Positions 18,975-55,257 of a DNA stretch of 64,000 nt are shown one piece after another. This DNA is from an uncultured Rhodospirillaceae bacterium (GTDB lineage: Bacteria > Pseudomonadota > Alphaproteobacteria > UBA9219). The DNA lies in the NCBI GenBank assembly GCA_964517415.1, contig CAZFCA010000001.1, positions 54,969 to 118,968 on the forward strand, written 5' to 3'. Position numbers and translations under genes: made by a program. The first letter of the stretch is position 1; the number at the start of each line of letters is the position of its first letter. The notes beneath the pieces are model-generated. The model saw only the letters and a list, made by a program, of their open reading frames with translations, was not told the DNA's origin and searched no databases.

Positions 18975-19200
18975 TCATCGCCATAAAAAATGTCAGCGCG
19001 GATTATTCCCGCCGCCAACGCACGCCCAAATTTTTGCCGCCATATTCTACGGAAAGTCAGCCTGGATCCCCGCCTTCGCGGGGATGACGTCGTTATTATT
19101 GAGCGGGAAGTACTCTGCCCGATGATGACGTCGGTATTATTGCAGGACAGTTCTTTGCCCGATGATGACTCTGCTATTATGGACAAAGCGGTTCTTCTAT
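18975..19200. repeat. Intergenic repeat element sharing sequence (AATGTCAGCGCGGATTATTC; REP; GTTATTATTG; TTTGCCCGATGATGA) with the 44.43-44.86 kb intergenic region
   Basis: Direct comparison of the two regions. Both lie between convergent genes. Confidence 0.55.
19056..19089. repeat. REP/MITE-like palindromic unit GTCAGCCTGGATCCCCGCCTTCGCGGGGATGACG
   Basis: Core ATCCCCGC-N6-GCGGGGAT palindrome with a CAGCCTGGA flank. Family members at 35168, 35213, 44522, 44703, 46535, 47698 and 55233. Confidence 0.7.
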
Positions 19201-19260
19201 TCCCCGAATCCACAATCAAGAATGTTCGATCCCTAGCCCCTAACCCCTAATCCCCCGACC

Positions 19261-20643
19261 TCAGTCTCTTAGCCACTCCGCGAAATCCCTTTTTGCCCTT
19301 TGCGTATAAAGCAGCTTCCTGTCGCGTTTGCCTTTGCCTTCGGTTATGGGCGGGAAAAGGCCGAAGGCGACGTTCATGGGCTGGAAAGTCTGCGCGTTTG
19401 CATCGCCTGTAATATGCGCGACAAGCGCGCCCATGGCCGTTGTGCGCGGCGGGGCGGTTCGCGTTTCGCCTTTGCGCTCGGCGGCGGCGAACAAGCCCGC
19501 CAGCAATCCCATGGCGGCGGATTCCACATAGCCTTCGACTCCCGTCATTTGCCCCGCAAAGCGAAGATGCGGCCTGCTTTTCAGGCGCAGTTGTTCATCC
19601 AGCAAAAGGGGACTGTTGATGAACGTGTTACGATGCAGCCCGCCAAGGCGGGCGAATTCCGCGTTCTCTAACCCGGGGATCATGCGGAAAACGCGCGTTT
19701 GGTCGGCGTATTTCATTTTTGTCTGGAAGCCGACGAGATTATAAAGCGTGCCCAGCGCGTTATCCTGCCGCAGTTGCACGACCGCATAAGGCCGCTTGTC
19801 CGAATGCGGATTGGTAAGTCCCACAGGCTTCATGGGGCCGTAGCGCAGAGTATCGAGGCCGCGCTCCGCCATCACTTCGATAGGCAAACAACCATCGAAA
19901 TATTTAATTATGTTGCCGCGACTGCTCTGCGCTTCGCGCAACCGCGACTGCGGTATTTCCCAGTCTTTAAATTCCGTCTTTTCCGCGTTCAAAAGTTCGC
20001 GCACGAAGTGTTCGTACTGTTCCTGATCCATCGCGCAGTTGATGTAATCCGCGCCCGTGCCTTCGGGCCCGACTTTGTCGTAGCGCGATTGCATCCATGC
20101 TTTTGACATATCAATGCTCTCGCGCACGACAATGGGCGCAATGGCATCGAAGAAGGAAAGAGAGTCCATGCCCGCGGCCTCGCGGATGGATTCCGCCAGC
20201 GGTTCGGAAGTCAAAGGGCCGGAAGCGATAATGACGGAATCCATGTCGGCGGCAGAGGGCAGGGCGGTGATTTCCTCCCGCGCAATTTTAATAAGCGGAT
20301 GCTTTTCAAGCGCGGCGGTAATATCGGCGGCAAAGGCTTCGCGATCTACGGCCAATGCGCCTCCGGCGGGGACTTTATGCCGATCCGCCGCCGCCATGAC
20401 AAGAGAACCGCAGCGCCTCATTTCGTCATGCAAAAGGCCTACGGCGTTGTAGTCGCTGTCGTCGGAACGCAGGGAGTTGGAGCAAACCAATTCGGCAAGC
20501 GCATTTGATTTATGCGCCTCGGTATTCTTATGCGGGCGCATTTCATGCAAGACGACCGGAACGCCTGCTTGCGCGGCCTGCCATGCCGCCTCGCAGCCCG
20601 CAAGCCCGCCGCCGATGATGTGGATGGGAAGTATAGTGGTCAT
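19261..20643 (-). CDS. trmFO: Methylenetetrahydrofolate--tRNA-(uracil-5-)-methyltransferase TrmFO (Gid)
   Basis: N-terminal FAD motif [16 protein letters not shown], 460 aa, TrmFO-type rather than MnmG (too short). Confidence 0.9.
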
Positions 20644-20834
20644 TATTTCCTAAGCGAAAAAATGGGACCCCCGCCTGCGCGGGGTGACGGTTGTTCCTTT
20701 TAAATGGGCGCTGCTCCACAGTTAAGAAACCAAATCGGATTCCGCATCCCCGCCAATTGTGCCATCAACACCATTCAACCTTTCAAAGAACTTCTATAGG
20801 CACAATAGGCGGGGTGCGGAATGACGCTAAAATC

Positions 20835-32815: not shown

Positions 32816-33100
32816 AGTTCCACGCTTATTTCATACGCCTGAAGGTGACCATACAGGGGCAAGAAAAACAAGGATTCGCAGGTATTTGTGAATATATCGC
32901 TAATGGAAAGAAATTGCTCGTACCGCCAGTGCTTCGCGATAATTGCGTAAGCGATACTAAATTAACATGAATATGCCCTGAGCGTTTGGTTGCGATAGGG
33001 TGCGAAAGGCATACTAAATCATGTGCGGAAAAGCCCCCGAATCCCGAATCCTAAATCCACCTATTCTTTCTGCCATCTGATTCCTGTTCTCTTCTTCTGC

Positions 33101-35167: not shown

Positions 35168-35238
35168 TCACATGCCTAGTCATTCCCGCGAATGCGGGAA
35201 TCCATATTTCTTTCAATAAGATGGATGCCCGCTTTCGC
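35168..35238. repeat. Inverted pair of REP units (GTCATTCCCGCGAATGCGGGAATCC ... GGATGCCCGCTTTCGCGGGAATGACG)
   Basis: Read directly from the sequence. Same family as the 19056 unit. Confidence 0.7.
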
Positions 35239-35309
35239 GGGAATGACGCGTGTCATTATTTGGCACGACCATAGCACGATTCGCCTCCTATAAAGGGTTG
35301 CTCTCCTGC

Positions 35310-35481: not shown

Positions 35482-35616
35482 GCTGTCCGTGGTATGAGAA
35501 TTGCCGTTAGGCCACAATATCTAGTGGCGAGCACTCAAGTATCAGGGATTTGTTTCGAGATCGCACCGATTTTGAGCATTTCTCCCCGCCAACAAACCGC
35601 CAGGGAGTTAAGAAAC

Positions 35617-40414: not shown

Positions 40415-40516
40415 CGGGCGAAACCCCTTTAACCTTAGGAGAAGGCGAGAAATAGACGTAAAGAATAAACTACCCCCGCAGTTTCAAAACCTCAACAATT
40501 AACCATAAAGTTCTGT

Positions 40517-41200
40517 TTGAAGAAAGTTCTCCATTTGATAGCCTCCAAAGGCACTATTCATTCAAAGGAGGCAAACGTGCATTTTTGCAGCAAGGACGAT
40601 TTAAGAAAGATCAACTCTCATAACGTGGGCGAAAAGCTTGCGGATTATTTCGACGTTCTCGACAGGACGATGCAGGACAAGCATCATTTCCTTTTTATCG
40701 AAGGCACTGAAGAGGCGAGCGCGTGCACGATCATTTTGCCGCGCCGCGATTCGCCTAGTCTTTTCATGCATGTTTTAAATGGCGTTATTCAACTTGACGG
40801 GCGAAAAACTCTCGTCGCGGCGTTGGAATCAGAGAACACAAAGGAACACATTGTCGTTTCAAATATATGCGGCACTTTCGACTCCGAAATCCGAGCCGCT
40901 TATCTTGCCAATGACAAGAATGTGGTAGGGGACTCTTGCGCCCTAACTTCGCATGGCAAGAATTTGCTCAGAAAATTGGTCGTGAACAAAAAGCTGGTCG
41001 GTCTGTCCCAAATGATGCGCCCGGTCGAGAATCTGCCCGAAGTCATGGATCGTTACTTTGCCGCCGCTTTCGGAAACGAGGCGGTGCCCGAGGTTTCAGT
41101 CGCGCCGCAGCGGCAGGTGATAGCCCCAAAAACGAGCATTCGCCCTGCAGATCGCAGAGAGCCGCCGATGAGGCTTCGGGAAGGATTGCAGTGCGAATAG
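40517..41200 (+). CDS. Hypothetical protein (no recognisable domain)
   Basis: 227 aa, lower GC than its neighbours, divergent from hpnB. Confidence 0.35.
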   Translation: MKKVLHLIASKGTIHSKEANVHFCSKDDLRKINSHNVGEKLADYFDVLDRTMQDKHHFLFIEGTEEASACTIILPRRDSPSLFMHVLNGVIQLDGRKTLVAALESENTKEHIVVSNICGTFDSEIRAAYLANDKNVVGDSCALTSHGKNLLRKLVVNKKLVGLSQMMRPVENLPEVMDRYFAAAFGNEAVPEVSVAPQRQVIAPKTSIRPADRREPPMRLREGLQCE

Positions 41201-41219
41201 AGGGGCTGTACCATTCCCT

Positions 41220-41972
41220 ATGCCTGAAATCCTTTCTGCGCGGAATCTGAAAGAGCTGCCTTTTGTCCGTCACGCCTTTTTCACGCGCGCGTGGGGAGAT
41301 GTGTGCTTTGCGGGAGGCGGCATGCCGCCCCATGCCTTGGAAACCCGCGCGCGCATGGCGGCGCATTTGGATATCGAAGCTCAACATTTTTTGTTCTGCC
41401 GACAAGTCCACTCGCCCGACGTCGTGACGGTCGCAAAGGCTTGGGAGCCGGAAAACGCCCCCATGGCCGACGCGATGGTGACGGATAAGCCCTTTCTCGC
41501 GCTTGGCGTTCTGACGGCGGATTGTGTGCCGGTTTTGCTTTCGGCGCAAGACGGTGCGGTTATCGGCGCAGCGCATGCGGGTTGGCGCGGCGCGCTTTCG
41601 GGCATTTTGGAAAATACGCTTGCGGCGATGGAAAAGCTGGGCGCAAAACGTGGGGATATTCGCGCGGCGCTTGGCCCCAGCATCGCGCAGGAATCTTACG
41701 AAGTCAGGCCCGAATTCCCCGCGCCGTTCATCGCGGAAAACGCGGATAATCAAAAATTTTTTATTCCCGCCAATAGGGCAGGGTATTACCAATTCGATTT
41801 AAAAGGATATGTGGCGGCGAAATTGCGCGGATTGGGCGCAGGCTCAGCAGAAATCATATCCGCCGATACCTGCGCCGATCCGAAACGTTTTTACAGCCAC
41901 CGCCATGCTATCCTTGGCGGCAAAAAGAAAAACGAAGGGAGATTGGTGTCAGCCCTTGCAAAGATCGTGTAA
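41220..41972 (+). CDS. pgeF: Peptidoglycan editing factor PgeF (YfiH / DUF152 laccase-domain protein)
   Basis: QVHSPDVV, ADAMVTDKP, LTADCVPVLL and AHAGWRG conserved motifs. Confidence 0.85.
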   Translation: MPEILSARNLKELPFVRHAFFTRAWGDVCFAGGGMPPHALETRARMAAHLDIEAQHFLFCRQVHSPDVVTVAKAWEPENAPMADAMVTDKPFLALGVLTADCVPVLLSAQDGAVIGAAHAGWRGALSGILENTLAAMEKLGAKRGDIRAALGPSIAQESYEVRPEFPAPFIAENADNQKFFIPANRAGYYQFDLKGYVAAKLRGLGAGSAEIISADTCADPKRFYSHRHAILGGKKKNEGRLVSALAKIV

Positions 41973-42368
41973 AGAACGTGGGTATCCCTTCTTATATAAA
42001 GGATCAAGGGGTCCTCTAAGGGCAGCAGTTGCAGCCAGAGGATCGTATGGAAGTCCATCTTCTTTCCATTCTATACATTTCGTAGCCATATTGGCTTTTT
42101 CCTTCAGGTATTGGTCGTCAAGCACTTCCGCTGTACGCTTAAGAATTTCATATATATGTTCTCCATATGTGGTTTTGGTTGGTAAAAGCGTAACCTGATT
42201 TTGTTTAGGGAAGGAACTGTCTGTATTGGTTTTCGGGTAATCCGTTCTGTGGGCATCGAATTCCAATACCACTAATTCTCTTGCCATTTTGGCAAAGCTA
42301 TTATTTCTATTTACACGATTGCTTTTTATTGTGGCTCTTTTTTCCACATGGTGTAGATTCAGTACCAT
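41949..42368 (-). CDS. Hypothetical protein in AT-rich islet, overlaps pgeF 3' end
   Basis: 139 aa, about 40% GC, no homolog recognised. Confidence 0.3.
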   Translation of the reverse strand: MVLNLHHVEKRATIKSNRVNRNNSFAKMARELVVLEFDAHRTDYPKTNTDSSFPKQNQVTLLPTKTTYGEHIYEILKRTAEVLDDQYLKEKANMATKCIEWKEDGLPYDPLAATAALRGPLDPLYKKGYPRSLHDLCKG

Positions 42369-42628
42369 TTTATTCTCCGTTAGTGTTTTTCTCGAAAAAG
42401 GCTATCTCCCACAGTCATCCGGGCCTTCGCCTACAATGAGGTGAATATTGTTCATCTCACCATGATTTGTCTATAACCGGATGCGCATTAAACAATATTT
42501 TATTGCCGAAAATGCGCCTTTTCAAAAAAAAGCAGTTTTATTTCGGTTAATTCGGGTCAGATTAATACCTTGAATAAAAGAGGCGGGTATGCTCAAAAAC
42601 AGCCCACAAAACGCGCTTTGGACAATCA

Positions 42629-44431
42629 ATGACGGCTCAATCCCATATTCGCAACTTTTCGATCATTGCCCATATCGACCATGGCAAGTCCACGCTCGCG
42701 GATAGGTTGATTCAGACTTGCGGCGCTGTCGAAGCGCGCGAAATGCGCGAGCAAATGCTCGATAACATGGATATCGAGCGCGAGCGCGGCATTACGATCA
42801 AAGCTCAAACTGTGCGCCTGACTTACAAGGCGAAAGACGGGGAAACGTATCAGCTTAATTTGATGGATACGCCCGGGCATGTGGACTTCGCCTACGAAGT
42901 CAGCCGTTCGCTGGCGGCTTGCGAGGGGTCTATTTTGGTGGTGGACGCCTCGCAGGGCGTCGAAGCGCAAACGCTCGCCAATGTTTATCAGGCGCTCGAC
43001 AACAACCACGAAATTATTCCCGTTTTAAACAAAATCGACTTGCCGGCCGCCGAGCCGGAGCGCGTGAAACAGCAGATCGAAGACGTTATTGGCCTCGACG
43101 CTTCGGACGCCATTCCCATTTCCGCAAAGACCGGCCTTGGCGTATCGGACGTTCTGGAAGCCATCGTTACGCGCTTGCCGCCGCCCAAGGGGAATGTTGA
43201 CGCGCCGCTTAAGGCCTTGCTTGTCGATAGCTGGTACGACGCTTATCTGGGCGTCGTGGTTCTTGTGCGCGTTGTGGACGGCGCGATCAGGAAGGGACAA
43301 AAAATCCGCTTCATGGTTACGGGCGCGGTGCGCGATATCGACCGCGTCGGCATTTTTACGCCCAAGAAAATCGAAACCGGCGAATTGAAGGCTGGCGAAA
43401 TCGGCTTTATCACGGCTGGCATCAAGCAAATCAGCGACACGAAAGTAGGCGATACGATCACGGACGATAAAAATCCGGCCGCTTGTCTTTTGCCCGGATT
43501 CAAGCCTTCCGTTCCGGTGGTGTTTTGCGGCCTCTTTCCCGTAGACGCCAACGATTTCGAGCATCTACGCGAATCCTTGGGCAAGCTCGCGCTTAACGAC
43601 GCCAGCTTTATGTTCGAGCCGGAAAGCTCGGTCGCTTTGGGCTTCGGTTTTCGCTGCGGCTTTTTAGGGCTGCTGCATTTGGAGATTATTCAAGAACGGC
43701 TTGAGCGCGAATTTAATCTGAATCTCATCACCACTGCGCCGTCGGTTATCTACAAGGTGCATTTAACCGACCAAACGGTTAAGGAGCTGCACAATCCCGC
43801 CGACATGCCCGACCCCGTGCGCATCGAGCGCATCGAAGAGCCGTGGATCAAGGCCACCATTTTAACGCCGGACGATTATCTGGGCGGCATTTTGGCTTTG
43901 TGCAACGACAGGCGCGGCGAGCAGGTGGAGCTGACTTACGTCGGCGCGCGCGCGATGCTGGTTTATAAACTGCCGTTGAACGAAGTGGTGTTCGATTTCT
44001 ACGACCGATTGAAATCCATCAGCCGCGGGTACGCCAGTTTTGATTACGCGCTGGACGCCTATCGCGAAGGCGATTTGGTGAAAATGTCCATTCTTGTGAA
44101 TGCCGAGCCTGTGGACGCTCTTTCGATTATCGTCCACCGCGCCAACGCCGAAAAGCGCGGGCACATGCTGTGCGAGCGTTTGAAGGATTTGATCCCGAGG
44201 CATTTGTTTAAAATCGCGATTCAAGCGTCGATTGGCAGCCGTGTCATCGCGCGGGAAACCATCTCGGCCATGCGTAAGGACGTGACCGCGAAATGCTATG
44301 GCGGCGATATTTCCCGAAAGCGCAAACTGCTTGAAAAGCAGAAAGAAGGCAAAAAGCGCATGCGCCAGTTCGGGCAGGTCGAAATTCCCCAAACGGCCTT
44401 CATCGCAGCCTTAAAGATGGACGATAAGTAA
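42629..44431 (+). CDS. lepA: Elongation factor 4 (LepA)
   Basis: [21 protein letters not shown], 600 aa, colinear with LepA. Confidence 0.95.
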
Positions 44432-44521
44432 GACAGATGCCAGAAGACAGATGTCAGATAACAAGGCATAGGAAAGCAGTTTTTCAGTATCAAAAAAATC
44501 CTTCTGAAGCGCATCAGCCAT

Positions 44522-44736
44522 TAATACTGGCGTCATCCCCGCGAAAGCGGGGATCCAGGCTGACTTTCCACAAGAACAATCCGTCCAGAATTCATCCCTC
44601 ACTTCCCCCCATCATTCTGGACAATTTGCGCGTCAATACCACAAGAAATGTCAGCGCGGATTATTCGCGTCGTAATTGTTATTCCCGAATTCTATCCGCC
44701 ATTTCTTTTGATAGTCAGCCTGGATTCCCGCTTGCG
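44522..44736. repeat. MITE-like composite: two REP units in inverted orientation (44522-44555 and 44703-44736) flanking about 147 bp that also occurs near 18985
   Basis: CGTCATCCCCGCGAAAGCGGGGATCCAGGCTGAC ... GTCAGCCTGGATTCCCGCTTGCGCGGGAATGACG. Internal AATGTCAGCGCGGATTATTC shared with 18981-19004. Confidence 0.65.
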
Positions 44737-44858
44737 CGGGAATGACGCCGGTTATTATTGCGGCGATAGTTTGCCCGAGGATGATGCCCAATTTATGGCT
44801 GATGCGCTTCAGAAGGATTTGTGTCCCTTATAACTGATCACTGATCACTGATTGCTGC

Positions 44859-45851
44859 CTAACAATACCCTTCCGCCTTAAACCACGCGATGGCGTCGGC
44901 AAGGGCGTCGCGGGCGGGGCGGAATGTGTATCCCAATTCACGCTGTGCCTTCGATGACGAGAAGTACATTTTCTTTTCCGACATGCGCAGGGCGTCCAAC
45001 GTCAGCATCGGCTGCCATCCAGTCGCCCGGGCGATCATTTCCATGACAAATGCGACCGGATAAAGCGGCGCGCGCGGAATCCTGATTTTCGGCGCGCGCC
45101 TTCCTTGAAGATCGGCGACGGTCGCCATGATTTCGCCAAGCGGCATATTCGCGCCGCCGAGGATGTACTTGTCGCCGATTTTGCCTTTTTCAAGCGCGAG
45201 CCAGTGGCCGTGCGCCACATCGTCCACATGGACAACGTTTAATCCCGTATCTACATAAGCGGGCATTTTCCCGCCCGCCGCGTCGAGGATAACGCGGCCT
45301 GTGGGAGTCGGCTTGATGTCGCGCGGCCCAATGGGCGTCGACGGATTGACGATGACGGCCGGCAGTTTGTGATGCGTAATCAGGCGATAAATTTCCTTTT
45401 CGGCAAGGTATTTCGACTGCTTATACGCGCCGACCATATCTTCATAATGGACGGGGGAATCTTCGTTCGAAGGCGTGCCGTCCTTGTTCAGCCCGAGCGT
45501 GGCGACGGAGCTTGTGTAGACCACGCGCTCCACCCCCGCCGCCACGGCGGAAAGCATCAACGCGCAGGTGCCTTCGATGTTCACGCGGTTCATGTGCGCT
45601 GCGTTTGGAACCCAGATTCGGTAATCCGCTGCGACATGGAAAAGATTCCTGCATCCTTTGAGTGCCCCGCGATAGCTTTCAGGTTTTTCCAAATCGCCTT
45701 CGATAATTTCGACATCAAGTCCTTTCAGATTGCGACGGTCGTTCCCCGGGCGCGAAAGGACTCGCAGGGCATGGCCTTTAGACAAAAGCACTCGGGCTAC
45801 TGCGGCGCCGACAAAACCGGTCGCACCGGTGAGGAATGTGGTTTCGGTCAT
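44859..45851 (-). CDS. hpnA: NAD-dependent epimerase/dehydratase, HpnA-like (hopanoid-associated sugar epimerase)
   Basis: FLTGATGFVGAAVARVLLSKGHALRVL and YxxxK (YKQSK) extended-SDR motifs. 330 aa. Confidence 0.6.
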   Translation of the reverse strand: MTETTFLTGATGFVGAAVARVLLSKGHALRVLSRPGNDRRNLKGLDVEIIEGDLEKPESYRGALKGCRNLFHVAADYRIWVPNAAHMNRVNIEGTCALMLSAVAAGVERVVYTSSVATLGLNKDGTPSNEDSPVHYEDMVGAYKQSKYLAEKEIYRLITHHKLPAVIVNPSTPIGPRDIKPTPTGRVILDAAGGKMPAYVDTGLNVVHVDDVAHGHWLALEKGKIGDKYILGGANMPLGEIMATVADLQGRRAPKIRIPRAPLYPVAFVMEMIARATGWQPMLTLDALRMSEKKMYFSSSKAQRELGYTFRPARDALADAIAWFKAEGYC

Positions 45852-45853
45852 TA

Positions 45854-46357
45854 TTATCCTCGGCCTTTTCTAGGTTGCGCGACTTTGGCGCCGACGCGGA
45901 CGGGGCGTTCGGCGAAGCCGCCAAGGCTTATCATGCGGTCGTAGATGACGATGGCTCCGGCGATGCCGACGTTGACGCAGAATTTTGTCGGGATTTTCAC
46001 AATATGGTCGCAGCGCTTGACCATTTCGGGGGAAAGGCTGCCTTTTTCAGGCCCCAGCACATACGCGGCGCGCAACGGGTGGCGGAAGCTGGGCATATCG
46101 ATGGAGTCGTCGATCAGTTCCACGCCTACAAGAGAGCAGTCTTTCGGCAACGTGAATTCTTCGATGCTTTTATATGCATAGAAGGGCAGGTGAATGTCGG
46201 CGTGGGAGGTGTCGGTCGATTTGATTTCGGCATAGTTCACCGATGCGCCGACCGTAAAGAAAAAACTCGCGCCGAAAGCGTGCGAGGTGCGCACAAGGTT
46301 GCCGAGGTTGAAGCCTTTGTTGATGCCTTCCGCGCCGATGGCGAAATAACCGCGCAT
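45854..46357 (-). CDS. SpoU/TrmH-family RNA 2'-O-methyltransferase (TrmL-like)
   Basis: MRGYFAIGAEGINKGFNLGNLVRTSHAFGA SPOUT N-terminus and C-terminal knot motifs. Confidence 0.7.
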   Translation of the reverse strand: MRGYFAIGAEGINKGFNLGNLVRTSHAFGASFFFTVGASVNYAEIKSTDTSHADIHLPFYAYKSIEEFTLPKDCSLVGVELIDDSIDMPSFRHPLRAAYVLGPEKGSLSPEMVKRCDHIVKIPTKFCVNVGIAGAIVIYDRMISLGGFAERPVRVGAKVAQPRKGRG

Positions 46358-46534
46358 TATTCTATGTCTCCTTTTTGACCCCTCACATGCAAGGGAAGAG
46401 GAAAGATGATATTTATCTGGAAAATCGCATGTTTCACGGGAATAGCCAAGAATAAAGCGGCTTTATAAATACGGAAAATATTTTCTGGATTAACGGGATG
46501 CCATGCATTAGAAAGCGCTTCCTGAAGGAAGGAT

Positions 46535-46560
46535 GGATCTCCGCTTTCACGGGGATGACG
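46535..46560. repeat. Degenerate REP unit GGATCTCCGCTTTCACGGGGATGACG
   Basis: Direct read. Confidence 0.5.
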
Positions 46561-46603
46561 CTCTTTTGGATGCAGTTACATAAATAGGTTAAGGAGCATA
46601 AGC

Positions 46604-46870
46604 ATGCCACAGGCAGCAAAGGCAAAAGAGGAAGTAGGCGGTATTTCAGGAGAAAGATTGCGCACGATCATTCAGCGCATCGAACGGCTGGAAGAGGACA
46701 AGGCAGCCGTTGGCGAGGATTTGAAGGAAGTCTACGCTGAAGCCAAAGGCGTCGGTTATGATACCAAAATTATTCGTAAAATCGTGAGTTTGCGCAAAAT
46801 CGAGATCGACAAGCGCCGCGAGACCGAGGAGCTTCTGGATCTCTATATGTCCGCCATCGGCATGGAGTAA
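46604..46870 (+). CDS. gapR: Nucleoid-associated protein GapR (DUF2312)
   Basis: LRTIIQRIERLEEDKAAVGEDLKEVYAEAKGVGYDTKIIRKIVSLRK matches GapR. Confidence 0.8.
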   Translation: MPQAAKAKEEVGGISGERLRTIIQRIERLEEDKAAVGEDLKEVYAEAKGVGYDTKIIRKIVSLRKIEIDKRRETEELLDLYMSAIGME

Positions 46871-46872
46871 AT

Positions 46873-47661
46873 TTGTCCTTCGCGCTTTCCAAAATTCTTT
46901 GGGCGGTCGTCGCGCCAGGAACGATGCTTACCCTTTTGCTGGGCGTCGGCTTGCTTTCCATGGCGTTTCGCCCGCTTGCGAAATTCGGAAAACGCCTATG
47001 CTTTTTGGTCTTCCTTTGCTTCGCTTCGATTGCGGTGTTGCCCGTGGGTAACTGGGCTTTAGCGCCGCTTGAAAATCGCTTTGCTTTCGATCCGCCCGAG
47101 CATATCGACGGCGTTATCGTCTTGGGTGGCGATGAAAGAACGGACATCACCGCCGCGCGGAGCTATCCGGTTGCGCTGGATTCCATGAGAAGGTTCGCGA
47201 CATTCGGCGATATGGCCAAGCGCTATCCCGACGCGAAGCTGGTTTATGCCGGAGGTTCAGGTCTTTTAAATCCCGACAAGACGCTGCTGGAGGCCGATGT
47301 AGCCAGCCTGATCATGGCTCAGATGGGCATTCCGGTCGAGCGGGTTATTTTTGAAAAAGAGTCCCGCAATACTTTTGAAAACGCCGTTTTCTCTGCCGCT
47401 CTCGTCAAGCCCGAAACGAACGAAAACTGGCTTCTGGTCACCAGCGCGTGGCACATGCCTCGCGCGATGGGCTGTTTCCGTCAAGCGGGCTGGAACATTT
47501 ATCCTGTTCCTACGGGTTATTTTACGACAGGAGATTACCGCTTTTCCTTTCTTTTCCGCTTTGACGAGCAAATACGCGCTTTAAGCTATGCAAAGCGTGA
47601 GTATATTGGCCTTATCGCTTACTGGCTGATGGGCAGAACAGACGCCTTGTGGCCCCAGTAA
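46873..47661 (+). CDS. YdcF/ElyC (DUF218) family membrane protein
   Basis: DGVIVLGGDE ... VTSAWHMPRA DUF218 motifs with N-terminal TM helices. Confidence 0.75.
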   Translation: MSFALSKILWAVVAPGTMLTLLLGVGLLSMAFRPLAKFGKRLCFLVFLCFASIAVLPVGNWALAPLENRFAFDPPEHIDGVIVLGGDERTDITAARSYPVALDSMRRFATFGDMAKRYPDAKLVYAGGSGLLNPDKTLLEADVASLIMAQMGIPVERVIFEKESRNTFENAVFSAALVKPETNENWLLVTSAWHMPRAMGCFRQAGWNIYPVPTGYFTTGDYRFSFLFRFDEQIRALSYAKREYIGLIAYWLMGRTDALWPQ

Positions 47662-47697
47662 GAATTCCTTTAGGTTTTCGATCTAGAACAAACGAAT

Positions 47698-47723
47698 GGG
47701 ATGCCCGCTGATCCGGGCATGAC
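47698..47723. repeat. REP variant GGATGCCCGCTGATCCGGGCATGACG
   Basis: Direct read. Overlaps the 5' end of the ORF-track extension of mltB. Confidence 0.5.
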
Positions 47724-47766
47724 GGGGGAAATCGGGATGCCCTTCATTTGGGAAAACAGAAAAACA

Positions 47767-48771
47767 ATGAGCAGACGGCAAGGCGCTTGCAAGTTAATTT
47801 CTTTGTCCGCCGCTATTATGGTTTTTGTCACTGCGTGTGCTTCGGCGACGCCTTTAAGGACGGCGCCGAATGCGTCATGGCTGCAGCAGCTTCAGCAGCA
47901 GGCGATCAGCGAGGGCGTATCGCCGGCGGTCGTTCACGAAGCGCTTGATAACTTCAGGCCTAATCCGCGCGTGATCGAGCTTGACCAAAGGCAACCGGAA
48001 AGCACCATTACTTATGACACCTACAAGCAAAGAACCGTCACAGCCAGCCGCATTCGCAAGGGCGCGGAATTGGCGCGTCTTTATGCCCTCCCTCTGGCCG
48101 AAATTGAAGCGCGCACGGGCGTGCCGCCGCAAGTCGTCGTCGCGCTGTGGGGAATCGAAAGCAGCTACGGCGAAAACCCTGGCAATTTCGAGGTCATCAA
48201 TTCGCTGGCGACGCTGGCTTATGAAGGGCGCCGGTCGTCGCTCTTCCGCAAAGAGCTGATCAATGCTTTGAAGATTCTGGAGCGCGAGAACATGACCGCC
48301 GATCAATTGCGCGGCTCGTGGGCGGGGGCGATGGGGCAATGCCAGTTCATGCCCTCGACGTATTTGAGATACGCCTACGACTCTCGGGGCGACGGCAAAA
48401 GCGACATTTGGAACGACCCGATGGATGTTCTGGGCTCTATCGCGAATTACCTCGCTGCAGAGGGGTGGAAACGCGGCCAGCCTTGGGGCTATGAAGTGAG
48501 AGGGCAGGTGCCTTTGTCAGAAGTGGGCATGGAGCAGAAACGTCCCGTTCACCAGTGGGCTTCGATGAATTTGGTTTCCAAGGTCGGCATGGCGTTGCCG
48601 CATAGCGATCATCAGGCTTCGCTTGTCCAGCCCGGCGGGCAGGAGGGCCCCAGCTTCCTTGTTTACGACAACACGCGCGCGCTGATGCGCTGGAATCGCT
48701 CCACCTATTTTGCCGTTTCCGTTGGCCTTTTGGCGGACGGCATTAAGGACGGGGCACAAATGGGGCGGTAG
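47767..48771 (+). CDS. mltB: Lytic murein transglycosylase (MltB family), probable lipoprotein
   Basis: VVVALWGIESSYGENPG and CQFMPSTY motifs. Lipobox VTAC. Confidence 0.8.
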   Translation: MSRRQGACKLISLSAAIMVFVTACASATPLRTAPNASWLQQLQQQAISEGVSPAVVHEALDNFRPNPRVIELDQRQPESTITYDTYKQRTVTASRIRKGAELARLYALPLAEIEARTGVPPQVVVALWGIESSYGENPGNFEVINSLATLAYEGRRSSLFRKELINALKILERENMTADQLRGSWAGAMGQCQFMPSTYLRYAYDSRGDGKSDIWNDPMDVLGSIANYLAAEGWKRGQPWGYEVRGQVPLSEVGMEQKRPVHQWASMNLVSKVGMALPHSDHQASLVQPGGQEGPSFLVYDNTRALMRWNRSTYFAVSVGLLADGIKDGAQMGR

Positions 48772-48899
48772 AGCGCGGATTCTATCAAATCCAGACTTAT
48801 TACGCTTTTGCTGAGTCTGCCCTAACCCCAGCCCCCAGCCCCTTAATTTTTGTTAATAAATATGGTGTAGCCTGATCGCCCATCATGGAGGCATGAGTA

Positions 48900-49553
48900 A
48901 TGTCATATCGCGCCGTTCGATCTTCTTGCCGCCGCCTTGGCTTTACGCTGGTCGAGGTCGCGATTGTGCTTGGCATCTGCGGGTTGCTTATATTCGGGGT
49001 TTATTCCGCTATGAGCTCGTCGCGCAGTTCGCACATAGCGGAGGAAGTGACAACCAATCTTGGCCAAGTCGTCGACAACGTGCGCAATTATTACGCGCGC
49101 GGCGGCTCAAGCGACAGCGTCACCGGCAGTAACTGTACCGCCGCTGGTGCGAATACCAGCTTTGAGGAGCTTAATTTTGCCACCGGAATTTTTCCTCAGC
49201 ATATGAAAAAATTGTTTGAGGATAATATAGTAGACGTCGGTGTTTGCGACCTTCCGGCCGGAACGCCGCGTGTCTTTGTGCATTATGCGCGAATTCCTTC
49301 GTACGCCTGCCATAATGTCGTTGTGGCGGCTTCTTTCGCGGGCGTGGATATGGAGCTTTCCAAGGTCGTCGTCTTCGGGGATGCGACAAGCACGTTTTTT
49401 ATCGACGAGGCGGTGGGCACATCACTTCCGGCAAATGTCGATGCGGATTCCAGGCATATCAAGATCAATTCGCCGTTGCTCTTTGAATCGTGCCCAAATG
49501 ATCCCGCGAACGCCTTTCTGACGATAGATTTCTATTACAAATTGAGGCCATGA
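48900..49553 (+). CDS. Type IV pilin-like / pseudopilin protein with prepilin N-terminal motif G|FTLVEVAIVLGI
   Basis: Class III signal: Gly-1, Glu+5 and a hydrophobic alpha1 helix. 217 aa. Confidence 0.6.
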   Translation: MSYRAVRSSCRRLGFTLVEVAIVLGICGLLIFGVYSAMSSSRSSHIAEEVTTNLGQVVDNVRNYYARGGSSDSVTGSNCTAAGANTSFEELNFATGIFPQHMKKLFEDNIVDVGVCDLPAGTPRVFVHYARIPSYACHNVVVAASFAGVDMELSKVVVFGDATSTFFIDEAVGTSLPANVDADSRHIKINSPLLFESCPNDPANAFLTIDFYYKLRP

Positions 49554-49554
49554 C

Positions 49555-50205
49555 ATGAGAGCCGAAAAATTCAAAAAAGGCTACACGCTTGCGGAAATGG
49601 CAATTGTGCTTGCCGTGGCAGGGTTTCTTACGGCGAGTATCTGGGCGGCGGCTTCGTCGGCGCGGGCAAGCAAAAGAATCGCGCAAACCTCTCAGCAGAT
49701 CATGACCGTGGTGCAGCGGACGCGGGATTATTATTTAGGAGCGCAAACAATCGAAGGGGCTGCATTTCAAGATCTCATTGTTCCCCTTTTCCAGAGAGAC
49801 GTTTTCCCTGCCGAAATGAAAGCCAGATGCGGGGGGGCTTTGTGTCTCAATTCCGCCGTTTCGGCCGATCCGACCGGCGCTTTCAGGATGAGAACGGGGC
49901 AAACAAATAGCCACTTCAGAATAATTTTGATTTCTTTGTCGCGGGAGGAGTGTGTCAATCTATTGTCTAATGCAGTGAATTTCCGCGACCAAACCCTTGG
50001 CGTCGATGGCATATGCGTCGGCACGTCCGTTAACCGTTGTATTGCTGATACAAATTTGGGCACTAATCCTTGGCGCTTGATCGACTCGACCACAACGCCC
50101 GGTGTTCGTTCCATCGCGGGCGGAGAGACGGTGATGGGCATGTGCGGCGCGCTGCCGGATAATAATTTAAATCAAGTCGGCTGGGACTTCAATTTGCGGA
50201 AATAG
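49555..50205 (+). CDS. Type IV pilin-like / pseudopilin protein with prepilin N-terminal motif G|YTLAEMAIVLAVAG
   Basis: Class III signal as above. 216 aa. Starts 2 bp after the previous pilin-like gene. Confidence 0.6.
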   Translation: MRAEKFKKGYTLAEMAIVLAVAGFLTASIWAAASSARASKRIAQTSQQIMTVVQRTRDYYLGAQTIEGAAFQDLIVPLFQRDVFPAEMKARCGGALCLNSAVSADPTGAFRMRTGQTNSHFRIILISLSREECVNLLSNAVNFRDQTLGVDGICVGTSVNRCIADTNLGTNPWRLIDSTTTPGVRSIAGGETVMGMCGALPDNNLNQVGWDFNLRK

Positions 50206-50227
50206 CGCCGCCCGCTGCGCTAAAAAT

Positions 50228-52048
50228 TCACTCCACCGTTACGCTTTTCGCCAGATTGCGCGGTTGGTCGACATCTGTTCCTTTGGCGACGGCGATATAA
50301 TAGGCGAGAAGCTGCACGGGCAGGGCATAGAGAATAGGCGCGACGGCCGAGTCGACCAAAGGCATCTCGATGCTGCGGAAAACCTTGGCGCCGACGCTTT
50401 CAATGCCCTTTTTGTCCGAGAATAATACCACTTTGCCCCCGCGTGCGGCCACTTCTTGGATATTGGAGGCGGTTTTCTCATAAAGCGCGTCGCTGGGCGC
50501 GAGGAAGACGACCGGCATGGCCTCGTCGATCAAAGCGATGGGGCCATGCTTCATTTCACCCGCCGGATAGCCTTCGGCATGGATGTACGAGATTTCCTTC
50601 AGTTTCAGCGCGCCTTCCATCGCCAGCGGATAAAGCAATCCGCGGCCGAGATAGAGAACGTCGCGCGCGTCGCTCATATTCTGCGCGAGTTCCTGAAAAC
50701 GGTTTTCGGCGCGCAGGACGAAATCGATTGCAGCAGGAAGGTCGCGCAAAGATTGCAAGATTTCAGCGATGCGCGAAGGGGGCAGGGCGCCGCGCTCTTG
50801 CGCCGCCGATAAAACAAGGCAAAGCAAGACCGCAAGCTGCGTCGTAAAGGCTTTCGTCGAGGCGACGCCTATTTCCGGACCCGCAAGCGTCGGTATCACG
50901 ACATGCGAAGCGCGGGCAATGGAGCTTTGCGGGACGTTGACGATTGATAGTATATTCTGCCCCATCGATTTCGCGTAATGCAGCGCCGCCAGCGTGTCCG
51001 CCGTCTCTCCCGATTGGGAAACGACAATCGTCAAGCCGCCATCGGGCATGGGCGCTTCGCGATAGCGGAATTCCGACGCGATATCGACTTCCACGGAAAG
51101 CCGCGCAAGCTGTTCGAACCAATACTTGGCAACAAGGCCGGTATATGAAGCCGTGCCGCACGCGATGATGGTGACGCGCGAAATTTCTTTCCATTTAAAG
51201 GGCATTTTAGGCAAATTCATCCTCCCGTCCGGCGCGACAAGAGACGCGAACGTATCGGCAATGACGGCGGGCTGCTGGAAAATCTCTTTCAGCATATAAT
51301 GGCGATAGCCGCCTTTGCCGATGGTATCGGCCGAAAGACCGGTTTGATGGATTTTGCGCTCGACGATTTTGTCCGAAGCGTCGTGAATGATAATTTTATC
51401 GGGATAGATTTCCGCCCAATCGCCTTCTTCCAAATATGCAATGCGGTTCGTCAGCGGCGCAAGCGCCATGGCATCGGATCCAAGGTACATTTCCCCTTCG
51501 CCGTATCCAAGCGCGAGCGGACTGCCGCGCCTTGCGCCGATGATCAAATCACCGTGCCCTTGAAACAAAATCCCCAAGGCGAAGGCGCCCTCAAGGCGTT
51601 TAAGAGCCTTGGCCGTCGCCTGTTGGGGCGTCAGGCCTTCGCGCAAATTGACGCTGATAAGATGAGAAATCGTTTCCGTATCGGTTTCCGAAGCGAACGC
51701 GCAGCCTCGGGCTTCAAGCTCGGCGCGAAGCTCGCGGTGATTTTCGATAATGCCGTTGTGCACGACGGCGACGCAATCCGTCGCATGCGGATGGGCGTTC
51801 GTTTCGTTAGGCTTGCCGTGCGTCGCCCAGCGGGTATGCCCGATGCCGATAGTGCCGGAAAGCGGCGTTCCGTTCAGGCGAGAAGCGAGGCGGTCCAATT
51901 TGCCCTCGGCGCGGCAAAGGCTGATGTCGCCATTCACAAGCGTCGCAATACCGGCGCTGTCGTAGCCCCTGTATTCCAGCCGCGTTAAACCGTCCAAAAG
52001 AATTGGCGCGACGGCCCGCGCCCCCACCATACCGACAATGCCACACAT
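50228..52048 (-). CDS. glmS: Glutamine--fructose-6-phosphate aminotransferase GlmS
   Basis: MCGIVG N-terminal nucleophile and two SIS domains. 606 aa. Confidence 0.95.
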   Translation of the reverse strand: MCGIVGMVGARAVAPILLDGLTRLEYRGYDSAGIATLVNGDISLCRAEGKLDRLASRLNGTPLSGTIGIGHTRWATHGKPNETNAHPHATDCVAVVHNGIIENHRELRAELEARGCAFASETDTETISHLISVNLREGLTPQQATAKALKRLEGAFALGILFQGHGDLIIGARRGSPLALGYGEGEMYLGSDAMALAPLTNRIAYLEEGDWAEIYPDKIIIHDASDKIVERKIHQTGLSADTIGKGGYRHYMLKEIFQQPAVIADTFASLVAPDGRMNLPKMPFKWKEISRVTIIACGTASYTGLVAKYWFEQLARLSVEVDIASEFRYREAPMPDGGLTIVVSQSGETADTLAALHYAKSMGQNILSIVNVPQSSIARASHVVIPTLAGPEIGVASTKAFTTQLAVLLCLVLSAAQERGALPPSRIAEILQSLRDLPAAIDFVLRAENRFQELAQNMSDARDVLYLGRGLLYPLAMEGALKLKEISYIHAEGYPAGEMKHGPIALIDEAMPVVFLAPSDALYEKTASNIQEVAARGGKVVLFSDKKGIESVGAKVFRSIEMPLVDSAVAPILYALPVQLLAYYIAVAKGTDVDQPRNLAKSVTVE

Positions 52049-52201
52049 TAGAATGCTGCTCCTTTAAGCCATGCCTTTGCCTTGGACTGTAGCGGGACTT
52101 TAGATCATGAATTTGATAATGGACAATATAGGGTTGAGGCGGCTTTGGCGAAGATTCAATTTTAGCGACTGGATGTTACCAGATCGCTACCCTCTTGAAT
52201 C

Positions 52202-52276
52202 TGGTGCCGTTGGAGGGATTTGAACCCCCGACCTTGGCTTTACGAAAGCCCTGCTCTACCTCTGAGCTACAACGGC
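52202..52276 (-). tRNA. tRNA-Thr (anticodon CGT)
   Basis: Manual fold: acceptor GCCGTTG/CAACGGC, D-arm GCTC..GAGC, anticodon loop TTCGTAA, T-arm GGGGG-TTCAAAT-CCCTC, discriminator A, encoded CCA. Confidence 0.8.
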
Positions 52277-52320
52277 GATAATACAAATCAAGCGTCGAAA
52301 CGCTCATGCATAGCAAATTA

Positions 52321-52555
52321 AGTTCAGCAAGCGACAGGCTCCTCGCAACCGCTCGTGACCCAAGGAGTCATTTCATTGGGTCGTTGGTATTATACCTAAC
52401 AACCAATGAATGTATCCACGCCGCGTGACTTCACTCCTGTCACTTGCTAAGCTGAGCCTTTGATATCCATAGCATATTCAGCTCAGCAAGTGACAGGCTC
52501 GTGACCTAAGCAGGTCATTTCATCGGCCGATTGGTATTAAAGGCTTAGGGCGTTA
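52321..52555. repeat. Two about 70-bp direct repeats (52321-52398 and 52478-52555) plus an inverted copy (52437-52462) between tRNA-Thr and the GT2 gene
   Basis: TCAGCAAG(C/T)GACAGGCTC...GTCATTTCAT(T/C)GG..GATTGGTATTA in both copies. The inverted copy is CTCCTGTCACTTGCTAAGCTGAGC. Confidence 0.6.
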
Positions 52556-52593: not shown

Positions 52594-53556
52594 TCATTCC
52601 CCCGAATTATTAAGCGGCGCGGGAATGTTAAGATAACGCATGCGCTTCATTTCCTGCCGCCCGCGTGTAACCGTATCTAAAATCAACCCGCAGGTGAGGC
52701 ACAGAAAGGCGACGATCATGAGCCCCATCGACAAAACGGCCGTCGGCAAGCGGGGGACAAGGCCGGTATTCAGGAATTCGATAAGAATGGGGATGATCAG
52801 GACAGAGGAAAAGAAGGCGAACAAAGCGGCGCAAGCCGAAAAAAACTGCATCGGTCTTTCTTCCTTCACGAGGACGACGATAGTCCACAAAATCCTGAAG
52901 CCGTCCTTAAAAGTGTTGAGCTTGCTGATGGAGCCTTCAGGACGATCTTTGTAGGGCGTCGGGACCTCGCTGATGGGCATGCGCAGTTCAAGGGCGTGAA
53001 CCGTCAGTTCCGTTTCCGTCTCGAAACCCGCCGAAAGCGCGGGAAAACTTTTGACATAGCGGCGCGACAGAACACGATAGCCCGAAAGCATGTCGGATAG
53101 ACGGCTTCCGAAAATCCACGAAACCATGCTGGTAAGCAGCCAATTGCCGAAGCGGTGCCCCAAGCGGTAGGCTTCCTTGATGTTGGTGACGCGCGCGCCG
53201 TTCACCATATCGAGCGACTCGCGCCGCAGGAGGTTGATCATTTTCTGAGCCGAGGGCGCGTCGTAGGTCGCGTCCCCGTCTACGAGAACATAAACGTCGG
53301 CTTCGATGTCGGCGAACATGCGGCGCACGACGTTGCCTTTGCCTTGCAAAGGCTCCTGACGCACGATTGCGCCCGCTTGCCGAGCCACGGCGACAGTGCG
53401 GTCTTTGGAGTTGTTGTCGTAAACATAGATTTTCGCGCCCGGCAAAGCGGCTCGAAAATCGGCGATAACGGATGCGATGGCGGCTTCTTCGTTATAGCAG
53501 GGGATAAGAACGGCCGTTCTGGGCATGGGCTGACCTATAGCTTGGATGCTGGGCAC
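52594..53556 (-). CDS. GT2 polyprenyl-phosphate glycosyltransferase (GtrB/ArnC-like) with two C-terminal TM helices
   Basis: VLIPCYNEE, YDNNSKD and VDGDATY motifs. 320 aa with C-terminal TM pair. Confidence 0.75.
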   Translation of the reverse strand: MPSIQAIGQPMPRTAVLIPCYNEEAAIASVIADFRAALPGAKIYVYDNNSKDRTVAVARQAGAIVRQEPLQGKGNVVRRMFADIEADVYVLVDGDATYDAPSAQKMINLLRRESLDMVNGARVTNIKEAYRLGHRFGNWLLTSMVSWIFGSRLSDMLSGYRVLSRRYVKSFPALSAGFETETELTVHALELRMPISEVPTPYKDRPEGSISKLNTFKDGFRILWTIVVLVKEERPMQFFSACAALFAFFSSVLIIPILIEFLNTGLVPRLPTAVLSMGLMIVAFLCLTCGLILDTVTRGRQEMKRMRYLNIPAPLNNSGE

Positions 53557-55178
53557 AGGCTTAAGGATTTATCATCAAAAAGCCTGTCCGTCACGCTTTG
53601 GCAGCCTTTGGTGTCCAATTTAAGGCCGAAATGGGACAAAGCCTCGTCACCGACGCCCAGTTGCCACGAGGGGATAAGCATCATAAAGCGGCCTTGCGCG
53701 GCTTTTTGCGCCTCCACGCGCTCGCGCAAAAGCCTATTGATTCCCTTGTTTTGTTCAGGGCTGGAGAAGTTGCTTTGTATGCGCACAAAGCGGATTTCAG
53801 GCGGAAACAGGGGGACAAGGTGGGAATAAGGCTCGAAACCGGCCATAAGGATCATAAGATTGGATGTATCGCCCAGCGGCGGAATTTGCGCCTGCACGAA
53901 GGGCCCGTCGAGCCATGCATAGCGCCGATACCAATTGCCGGGCTTAACGGAGCCCGCGATAAGAATAAGGATGAAGCAGATGATCAGGCGGCGTTCGACA
54001 TTTTTGATGGGCGCAAGGCCAATGGCAAGGACGATGAGCAAAGGCGCGATCATTTCCAGCGTCACGGCATAGCGATAGATGGAAAACATGGCGAGCCAAA
54101 CGATATAGGCGAGCGCAAACGCAAAAAGGAGATAGCGCGCGCCGTAGGGAACCGCCAGCGCGTCTTCGGCTTTCTTATTCCGGCCATAGGCAATGCGTAA
54201 AAGGGCGCAGAGGGGAAGCAAAACGTATAGTATTGTAAGCCGCCAGTCGCGCCATTCGATCTCGCCGACGCGATAGGGGCTATCGGCGAAAAGGAAGGGC
54301 ATAAGGACATAATCGCTTAGGCTATGCGGCGCGTATTGGATGTCGCGCGCGCTAGCATGCGGCGCAAGATCGGATTTAAAGATATTATTAAAGTAGGGGA
54401 ATAGCGGGCTTCCGAAGTTGGCTTGAAGGAAAGCCGCCCAATAACCCAAGGTCGTCGCGCACCCGATAAGGACTCCAAGGCCGAAGGCGAAGCTCAGCAA
54501 AAAGCCGCGCTTCCATCCGCCGCCGCAGAAAAGCAGCGCGCCGCAAAGCCCGACGGCAAAGACAACAGCGGGAAGTTTCAGGCCGAACATGATGCCCGAA
54601 GGCAAACCGAAAAGAAGGGCGAGGATGAAAGCGGTTTTCGCTTTATCCTTTTGAAGTTTGCCAAGATACCGCACGATAAGCGCGGCGGACAAAAACGTCC
54701 CGAGGCTTGTCATATTATCCCCGAAAGTCGTGCCGATTTGCGCGATGCCGCCTCCGCCCAGCATGCCTAAAGCGGCCAAAGCGGCGCAAACAAAGACTTT
54801 CTGCCGCTTGTTCGGGATAATCAGAACGGCATGCGCAATCATGAAAAGCAGGATGAAATTGAACCCCTGAACGAAACCCAGCGCGAAGCCCGCCGCTCTT
54901 GCCGGAACATGCATCGCCAGAAGATAGAAAGGCACGTCCATCAGGGGATTGTAGAAGTATGGCGTTTGCGACGGCAAAAGGTCGATGCCGTAGCGGTTCG
55001 TCAAAAACGCATAGGCGTTATAAAAATGGTAATTGCGCAAATCCCAGTTCGCGTCCTGCCCCAGATAGAGGGCGAGCAAGCCGAAGGCCACGGGCGCGAG
55101 GCATAAAAGGGCAATCGCCAAGCCACGCGAACGGTGGTTTTTGGGGGGGAGGAAAGGCAGGGAGAGCGTGTGGTTCAT
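53535..55178 (-). CDS. Polytopic GT-C-fold membrane glycosyltransferase (ArnT/Gtr-type/DUF2029-like)
   Basis: 547 aa, at least 11 predicted TM helices, overlaps the downstream GT2 gene by 22 bp. Confidence 0.5.
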   Translation of the reverse strand: MNHTLSLPFLPPKNHRSRGLAIALLCLAPVAFGLLALYLGQDANWDLRNYHFYNAYAFLTNRYGIDLLPSQTPYFYNPLMDVPFYLLAMHVPARAAGFALGFVQGFNFILLFMIAHAVLIIPNKRQKVFVCAALAALGMLGGGGIAQIGTTFGDNMTSLGTFLSAALIVRYLGKLQKDKAKTAFILALLFGLPSGIMFGLKLPAVVFAVGLCGALLFCGGGWKRGFLLSFAFGLGVLIGCATTLGYWAAFLQANFGSPLFPYFNNIFKSDLAPHASARDIQYAPHSLSDYVLMPFLFADSPYRVGEIEWRDWRLTILYVLLPLCALLRIAYGRNKKAEDALAVPYGARYLLFAFALAYIVWLAMFSIYRYAVTLEMIAPLLIVLAIGLAPIKNVERRLIICFILILIAGSVKPGNWYRRYAWLDGPFVQAQIPPLGDTSNLMILMAGFEPYSHLVPLFPPEIRFVRIQSNFSSPEQNKGINRLLRERVEAQKAAQGRFMMLIPSWQLGVGDEALSHFGLKLDTKGCQSVTDRLFDDKSLSLCPASKL

Positions 55179-55232
55179 GGGCAGAAAGTCTTATCGCATT
55201 CAGGCGCGGGAGTCATTAATAGAAAAAAGATG

Positions 55233-55257
55233 GATCCCCGCATTCGCGGGGATGACG
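55233..55257. repeat. REP unit GGATCCCCGCATTCGCGGGGATGACG
   Basis: Direct read. Confidence 0.7.

Follow-up and report, generated by a model that had tools for sequence, protein, structure and literature searches.

The window analysed here is a 64,000-nucleotide stretch of the genome of an uncultured Rhodospirillaceae bacterium (GenBank assembly GCA_964517415.1, contig CAZFCA010000001.1, positions 54,969 to 118,968), and its intergenic regions carry a family of short, oriented, GC-rich hairpins. These belong to the CGTC-1 class of repetitive extragenic palindromic (REP) sequences, the same element as dRS3/NTS of Neisseria and the Ssn-related motif (SRM), and in the source genome they probably serve as sites for an Ssn-type nuclease. 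The literature already covers this family, including how it is built, how widely it is distributed, that it occurs in Micavibrio-type bacteria and which nuclease is its partner, and the contribution of this analysis is to place the window copies within that framework and to weigh the other ways in which they might be explained.

A sequence-only reading of the same DNA had proposed a GC-rich palindromic REP-like family at eight listed sites. The label is right, and a repeat is indeed present at all eight, far beyond chance. The stem pattern ATYCCCGC-N4-GCGGGRAT, with at most two mismatches, has 7 matches in the 64-kb window against 0.31 expected, and a structure-aware scan that asks for the flanks TGG and GACG and a paired 8-bp stem returns 7 copies, against none in 30 shuffles; looser settings of that scan bring the number to 8 by adding a decayed copy at 46534. 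Read on its informative strand, the unit is 27 nt long and has the form CGTC-AT(Y)CCCGC-N4-GCGGG(R)AT-CCA. Six of the eight copies are good hairpins (folding energy -6 to -12.5 kcal/mol as single-stranded DNA), one is decayed (46534) and one is a weak relative (47698). The six good copies carry the stem AT(C/T/G)CCCGC-N4-GCGGG(G/A/C)AT with no mismatch or one; 46534 has two mismatches and 47698 deviates. The CGTC tag is present in 7/8 copies, the remaining one (35178) having AGTC where its orthologue in a related locus, L121, has CGTC. The CCA tail is likewise present in 7/8, the weak 47698 copy having CCC (GGG on the plus strand). Most stems in the window read ATCCCCGC rather than ATTCCCGC, a compensated change.

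The consensus first given for the family has to be redrawn. Its 6-nt loop is in fact 4 nt, and ATCCCCGC-N6-GCGGGGAT matches nowhere in the window, also when two mismatches are allowed; its 18-nt left half occurs 3 times, and a long GTCAGCC extension is carried by only 3 copies. The sites had been placed correctly, but their starts lie 0-18 nt, mostly 7-10 nt, upstream of the exact 27-nt cores because flanking sequence was counted in. Two further statements of that reading hold. All copies lie outside real genes, as had been claimed, and since only 12.3% of the window is intergenic the probability that at least 7 of 8 copies would fall there by chance is about 3e-6. Both of the inverted pairs that had been described are real: 35178/35222 has a 17-nt spacer, and 44531/44721 has 163 nt between the cores and 141 nt between its extended arms. 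Both are dimers of the head-to-head type and have their CGTC ends on the outside. The GC content of the window is about 54%, and Rfam, at the gathering threshold, reports two tRNAs only in the whole of it.

The published SRM pattern, HGTCWYN(0-2)YYVSBRHN(0-5)WNVSBRGN(0-2)RNCYNB (PMC11893778), has 8 matches in the window against a mean of 0.44 in 50 shuffles, and 7 of the 8 REP copies are matched by it. The copies, followed by two doubtful sites, are these:

19063-19089, minus strand: CGTC-1 REP singleton reading CGTCATCCCCGCGAAGGCGGGGATCCA, 171 nt downstream of the trmFO stop and on the trmFO sense strand; -9.7 kcal/mol as single-stranded DNA; SRM pattern match.
35178-35204, plus strand: left unit of the head-to-head dimer that lies between the divergent genes parE and gcrA, tag AGTC; found by scan, fold and SRM pattern.
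35222-35248, minus strand: right unit of the parE-gcrA dimer, with one stem mismatch where the stem is perfect in L121 and in another locus, L123; found by scan, fold and SRM pattern.
44531-44557, plus strand: left unit of the long-spacer head-to-head dimer between the convergent genes lepA and hpnA, with a GGCTGAC tail extension; -12.5 kcal/mol.
44721-44747, minus strand: right unit of the long-spacer dimer; perfect match to the Neisseria NTS consensus CGTCATTCCCGCGMAVGCGGGAATCYRG.
46534-46560, minus strand: decayed singleton, its stem mismatched at 2 pairs, between gapR and a divergent gene for a SpoU-type methylase; -2.5 kcal/mol, z -0.4, so that it barely folds.
47698-47724, minus strand: weak REP-like hairpin with an ATGCCCG stem and a longer loop, no SRM pattern match, between DUF218 and SLT_2 genes and overlapping the predicted start codon of an open reading frame (ORF) at 47701; its membership in the family is doubtful.
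55231-55257, minus strand: singleton between two minus-strand genes, on the sense strand and 53 nt beyond the stop at 55310.
8456-8468, minus strand: half-site, GGGCGGGATGACG only, after the atpC stop; weakly evidenced, and may be a REP remnant.
63849-63877, plus strand: ambiguous SRM pattern match just after the fumarase gene, left out of the copy count; better explained by a different and perfect 10-bp hairpin, CGCAGGCGGG-TAT-CCCGCCTGCG, at 63851-63883, 47 nt past the fumarase stop, which a chance-like SRM match overlaps.

The CGTC-1 class was described by Di Nocera, De Gregorio and Rocco (2013, BMC Genomics 14:522, PMC3733652) as having a CGTC tag, for which TGTC and CCTC variants also occur, an 8-bp stem starting with AT, a 4-nt loop and a CCA tail. 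Its dimers are mostly head-to-head with the tags outside, it has no associated tyrosine transposase, and it is present in tens to thousands of copies per genome (PMC3733652). The main hosts are Alphaproteobacteria, Micavibrio aeruginosavorus being among those listed, and the class was equated with dRS3 of Neisseria and RPE-6 of Rickettsia (R. conorii) (PMC3733652). The window copies share all of its structural features, are intergenic and have no neighbouring transposase; moreover, the peptides VIPAKAGI and LDSRLRGND, which that paper lists for intragenic copies, are direct translations of the window units. There are differences of context. The settings given in the paper are mostly unidirectional or convergent, but two of the window sites are in divergent promoter regions; and one window dimer has a 163-nt spacer, whereas among the dimers listed elsewhere only 2/91 exceed 100 nt. 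RPE-6 is the same REP class (PMC3733652), but Rickettsia RPEs are often found in frame inside genes, and the window copies are never inside a real gene.

Oriented dRS3 has since been redefined as NTS, CGTCATTCCCGCGMAVGCGGGAATCYRG, and more broadly as SRM (Chenal 2025, Nat Commun 16:2388, PMC11893778). One of the window copies matches NTS perfectly, and all of them have the C after the palindrome, the position reported to matter most for binding; unlike the pathogenic Neisseria, the window has no large clusters of the motif and no DNA uptake sequence. A neisserial origin of the DNA, which the dRS3-like sequence had led us to suspect, was rejected: no DNA uptake sequence of any dialect occurs in the window, and the gene content is alphaproteobacterial (GcrA, GapR, TrmFO, squalene-hopene cyclase, HpnA/HpnG, ParE, LepA, Lon). 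LepA is 86-96% identical to proteins of metagenome-assembled genomes (MAGs) that carry the label 'Alphaproteobacteria' or 'Bdellovibrionales', and Bdellovibrionales is where NCBI places Micavibrio; to judge from these labels, Micavibrio is likely a relative of the window's lineage.

Outside the window, an exact search for TGGATCCCCGC-N4-GCGGGGATGACG with one genome per species gave at least 120 loci. Among the matches listed are Alpha-, Beta- and Gammaproteobacteria, Gemmatimonadota, Planctomycetota, Verrucomicrobiota, Desulfobacterota, Chloroflexota and others, and the close pairs among them (n=125) are head-to-head in 91 cases, tail-to-tail in 16 and tandem in 18, the head-to-head spacers being mostly 15-45 nt. 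Covariation was assessed on 46 distinct copies picked by tag, AT pairs and tail only, that is, blind to the inner stem. In this set 96% of cells are paired and both-side changes occur at 4/8 pairs, a level not reached in any of 500 shuffles, and no slid register approaches the observed pairing. The third stem pair varies between T-A, C-G and G-C; CCGG, CTG and TGAC variants are fully compensated; and the loops read G-N-A-N on the CGTC strand. The orientation of 57 singletons was compared with local GC skew as a test of avoidance of the exposed lagging-strand template, and no association was found. The GTCAGCC extension was tried as a lineage marker in metagenomes and abandoned; it is not lineage-specific, because its 18 loci (mostly 62-74% GC, without ssnA) came mostly from other organisms. 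In Rhodopseudomonas pentothenatexigens (L005:5846-7311) six CGTC-1 units in the same orientation recur every ~310 bp, an array that is a tandem of a longer unit containing a REP and is unlike the usual head-to-head dimers.

The nuclease connection, which the sequence-only reading did not consider, comes from SsnA, a single-domain GIY-YIG protein (cd10448) of about 94 amino acids that binds the hairpin only as single-stranded DNA, on the CGTC strand only, and cuts just upstream of it; ssnA genes are typically flanked by the motif (PMC11893778). With a consensus sequence we retrieved SsnA homologues that include the 94-amino-acid N. meningitidis protein, whose Y6, Y17 and E64 match the residues mutated in PMC11893778. 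A Pseudoxanthomonas MAG (L144) has a 96-amino-acid GIY-YIG gene with a CGTC REP 12 nt upstream and an inverted REP 11 nt downstream, and the downstream REP is identical at 27/27 positions to window 19063-19089. The N. meningitidis ssnA gene lies inside a dRS3 cluster. Among 25 ssnA loci from IMG/VR, SRMs occur within 400 bp in 17, and the exact bracket CGTC-REP> gene <REP-CGTC, at 16-66 nt, in 9. The IMG/VR ssnA loci of ~57-59% GC were considered as relatives of the window and set aside, as they are without the signature of tandem heptamers that follows many of its genes. Because ssnA elsewhere sits between head-to-head units, the head-to-head dimers of the window look like the ssnA bracket without its gene.

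On this basis, namely sequence identity with proven substrates and a verified gene bracket, recognition by an Ssn-type nuclease appears to be the best-supported mechanism. On one strand, and as single-stranded DNA, the oriented 27-28-nt unit folds into a hairpin; the hairpins of the source genome would be recognition sites of an Ssn-family GIY-YIG nuclease, which would bind them in single-stranded DNA only and cut a few nt 5' of the CGTC tag. The units may thus mark DNA for single-strand cleavage during uptake, repair or replication. Head-to-head dimers that lack the gene would be derivatives of a REP-ssnA-REP cassette through which the family spread.

Relatives of the window indicate how stable the units are. 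L123, a Logan contig 99.96% identical to window 35197-52359, starts inside the parE-gcrA dimer, and L121, which has 86-90% nucleotide identity to the window, ends 119 nt after lepA; with one sequence starting and the other ending in or beside units, REP units thus tend to break short-read assemblies. L121 retains the parE-gcrA dimer together with its 17-nt spacer; 2 of 75 nt are changed there, where the remainder of the intergenic region has diverged by ~17% (P ~1e-4). In L125, whose LepA is 91% identical, lepA is directly followed by a different head-to-head dimer, the ATTCCGGC stem of which is compensated, and two other relatives have no dimer at that place. Judging by these comparisons, the units are old and in part under constraint, and there has been some turnover from one lineage to another.

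Two tentative proposals, to which together we give distinctly less credence than to the identification itself, concern the dimers. Those such as 35178-35248 may be non-autonomous derivatives of REP-ssnA-REP, in which case SsnA, and no transposase, would be the long-missing propagator of CGTC REPs in the way that the REP-associated tyrosine transposase (RAYT) is for REPINs. Within the bracket, each strand has one CGTC-oriented hairpin at its own 5' cassette boundary, so that the reported cut 5' of the motif would, for both strands, come to lie immediately outside the cassette. Alternatively, the parE-gcrA dimer may be a co-opted regulatory element. This dimer is conserved well above its surroundings and adjoins conserved DnaA-box-like sites. 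The parE-gcrA intergenic region has three DnaA-box-like sequences at 35320-35470 (TGTGGATAA, TATCCACA and ATCCACA), which are also conserved in L121. DnaA controls gcrA in Caulobacter, and these boxes fit such control.

Several observations weigh against the nuclease interpretation. Neither ssnA nor any other GIY-YIG gene is found in the 64 kb by Pfam searches of all 57 candidate ORFs, and a profile of 120 SsnA homologues run against the six frames of the window has a best E-value of 9, so ssnA does not lie within the 64 kb; a regular expression, phmmer with two sequences and the 120-homologue profile found none in the window or in 145 fetched loci. That the gene is present elsewhere in the source genome we only infer. 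In a published survey, an SsnA homologue is missing from 19% of the genomes that have >200 SRMs (PMC11893778). Of the six sites, two are in divergent promoter regions rather than after genes, and the conservation of one of them could mean that it has another, local role. Lastly, the genome-wide copy number (~300 in 2.5 Mb) is only an extrapolation from 8 copies in 64 kb.

The strongest competitor, which we consider unlikely as the principal explanation but which could coexist with nuclease recognition, acts on RNA: hairpins in 3' untranslated regions, notably the 325-nt one of the lepA-hpnA interval, would stop 3' exonucleases or read-through between convergent genes. The units at 19063, 44531, 44721 and 55231 do follow stop codons, and the strand on which they read CGTC...CCA is the sense strand of the gene upstream; the interval 44490-44826 folds into one long hairpin (-162.6 kcal/mol, z -12.5). 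Most REPs have been argued to be transcribed (Di Nocera 2013, PMC3733652). A terminator role, which the sequence-only reading had entertained, does not agree with what surrounds the units: no T-run follows any copy, the unit tails being CCAGGCTGAC or CCATCTT, and a scan for intrinsic terminators reported no REP unit. Three units (the 35.2-kb dimer and the 46.5-kb copy) lie in divergent promoter regions, and SsnA is inactive on RNA (PMC11893778).

The long lepA-hpnA hairpin belongs to a set of mosaic regions. It had been noted that the intergenic regions at 18.9-19.2 kb and 44.4-44.9 kb share further sequence and that both lie between convergent genes; both statements are borne out, the genes being hpnG/trmFO and lepA/hpnA respectively, and a third region, at 59.15-59.31 kb, shares the sequence as well. 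The components are as follows:

18879-18973, plus strand: long-stem REP-related hairpin, whose outer ends TGTCATTCCGCA...TGCGGAATCCAGGC are CGTC-REP-like, with a second, 16-bp palindrome inserted.
59211-59256, minus strand: long-stem REP variant TGTC-ATTCCGGAAAATTTGC-GAA-GCAAATTTGTCCGGAAT-CTAGGC.
44496-44820, no strand assigned: 325-bp composite with 30-nt outer inverted arms (44496-44525/44791-44820, 1 mismatch) enclosing the head-to-head dimer.
19083-19169, plus strand: 2.2 tandem copies of a 40-nt unit (GATGACG..GTTATTATTG..TGCCC), beginning inside the 3' end of the REP; one further copy of the unit lies at 44765-44796.
18988-19008 (plus), 44646-44666 (plus) and 59175-59195 (minus): 21-nt motif AAATGYCAGCGCGGATTATTC, 3 matches against 0.01 expected.

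The long-stem variants at 18.9-19.2 and 59.2 kb have common ends, TGTCAT...ATCCAGG or ATCTAGG. The 21-nt motif is always in convergent intergenic regions beside REP-type hairpins; it is absent from the fetched loci of other organisms, and its only match outside the window is in L123, a near-identical copy of the region. We think that the mosaics at 18.9-19.2, 44.5-44.8 and 59.2 kb have probably grown locally by accretion of REP variants and companion repeats. They can be compared with the NIMEs of Neisseria and the BIMEs of enterobacteria, in which REP units are likewise mixed with other short repeat families in intergenic DNA. They differ in that the companions found here (the 21-nt motif, the 40-nt tandem units and the long-stem variants) are lineage-specific and undescribed. 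Two copies, about 85% alike, of the sequence GTCATTCCGSA(A)CCCCGCCKATTGTGCC occur at 20790-20826 and 59274-59310, both on the minus strand, with a CGTC-REP-like head and no hairpin partner. ORFs of 86-102 amino acids run across the mosaics at 18926-19219 (minus), 18990-19250 (plus) and 44437-44745 (plus); they contain REP-encoded peptides of the LDPRLRGDD type, have no Pfam match and are almost certainly spurious.

The sequence-only reading saw in the inverted pairs an arrangement like that of a miniature inverted-repeat transposable element (MITE), and the whole 44496-44820 composite, and by extension the pairs, might be such an element: an insertion sequence reduced by deletion and mobilised in trans by way of 30-bp terminal inverted repeats. 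The pairs turn out to be standard head-to-head REP dimers and not transposon terminal inverted repeats. For the composite, the 30-nt inverted arms with a single mismatch, the 325-bp length and the non-coding interior are what such an element would show; yet the arms occur once in the window and had no other copy in the one collection examined, the ends have no direct duplication (CAGTATC vs GTGTCCC), the interior is made of REP units and companion repeats that occur separately elsewhere, and the window has no transposase. With single-copy arms and no target-site duplication, a MITE is not supported, and we consider it very improbable.

It is just as improbable that the units are chiefly landing sites for IS110/IS1111-type insertion sequences and filamentous phages, in the manner of dRS3 in Neisseria. 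Although dRS3 is reported to be a phage recombinase target and REPs to be targets of insertion sequences in Neisseria, Pseudomonas and Sinorhizobium (PMC3733652, PMC11893778), no unit is interrupted in the window, L121, L123 or L125, and there is no IS110-type gene in the window. Such landing would in any case be an exploitation of the repeats and not the reason for their existence.

Slightly less credible again is mobilisation by a RAYT (IS200/IS605 TnpA), which had been suggested for the family and under which the units would be REP/REPIN elements with the inverted pairs as the mobile unit. In general terms the two do resemble each other: both have oriented hairpins, inverted pairs and many copies, and both are intergenic. 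With the GTAG REP/REPIN-RAYT systems (Nunvar 2010; Bertels & Rainey 2011) the present family shares oriented hairpins and inverted dimers, and also a single-copy gene bracketed by its own repeats beside many gene-less copies, with a protein that acts on a single-stranded DNA hairpin. The tag, however, is GTAG in the one and CGTC in the other, the enzyme an HUH tyrosine transposase in the one and a GIY-YIG nuclease in the other, and transposition of CGTC units has been shown for neither partner. The CGTC class is not found flanking tyrosine transposase genes (PMC3733652), and the gene found between such pairs elsewhere encodes a GIY-YIG nuclease. The search for a RAYT that the sequence-only reading had proposed was made within the window, where Pfam finds no Y1_Tnp domain in any ORF, and no Y1, IS110-type or other transposase gene. 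Finally, that these are unrelated chance palindromes of high GC content is scarcely conceivable: only the weak copies (47698 and the half-site at 8456) fit, and the excess over expectation and over shuffles given above, the shared unpaired flanks, the exclusively intergenic location and the identical units in at least 120 loci of many phyla all speak for a family.

Other features of the window deserve a brief record. Tandem arrays of a heptamer, in 3-7 copies, stand directly after the stop codons of many genes, the unit varying by site (CCCCAAC, CCCTAAC, CCCGAAT, GACAGAT, ACTGATC, CCCCAGC). They are located at:

3756-3801
8470-8510
19231-19254
33036-33062
36335-36359
44432-44463
44833-44852
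48826-48842
55268-55307
59320-59350

Several are rich in G runs on the sense strand, for instance GGGGATTAGGGGTTAGGGGCTAGGG after trmFO, and in L121 (11803-11870) a different heptamer array is found at the same place after lepA. Hopanoid genes (shc, hpnG, an hpnE-like amine oxidase gene, two squalene/phytoene synthase genes, a glycosyltransferase gene and hpnA) lie at 15368-17967, 36359-40414 and 44859-45851. At 48900-50205 there are two adjacent ORFs of about 217 amino acids with a prepilin-type N-terminal methylation motif (weak Pfam matches) and no other annotation.

As the element had already been described, its recognition here has little value as a discovery. It is of use in annotation, where the units create spurious ORFs and break short-read assemblies, and it adds another host lineage to the Ssn/SRM system. 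The REP-ssnA-REP bracket is supported independently, from unrelated loci, and bears on how CGTC repeats spread.

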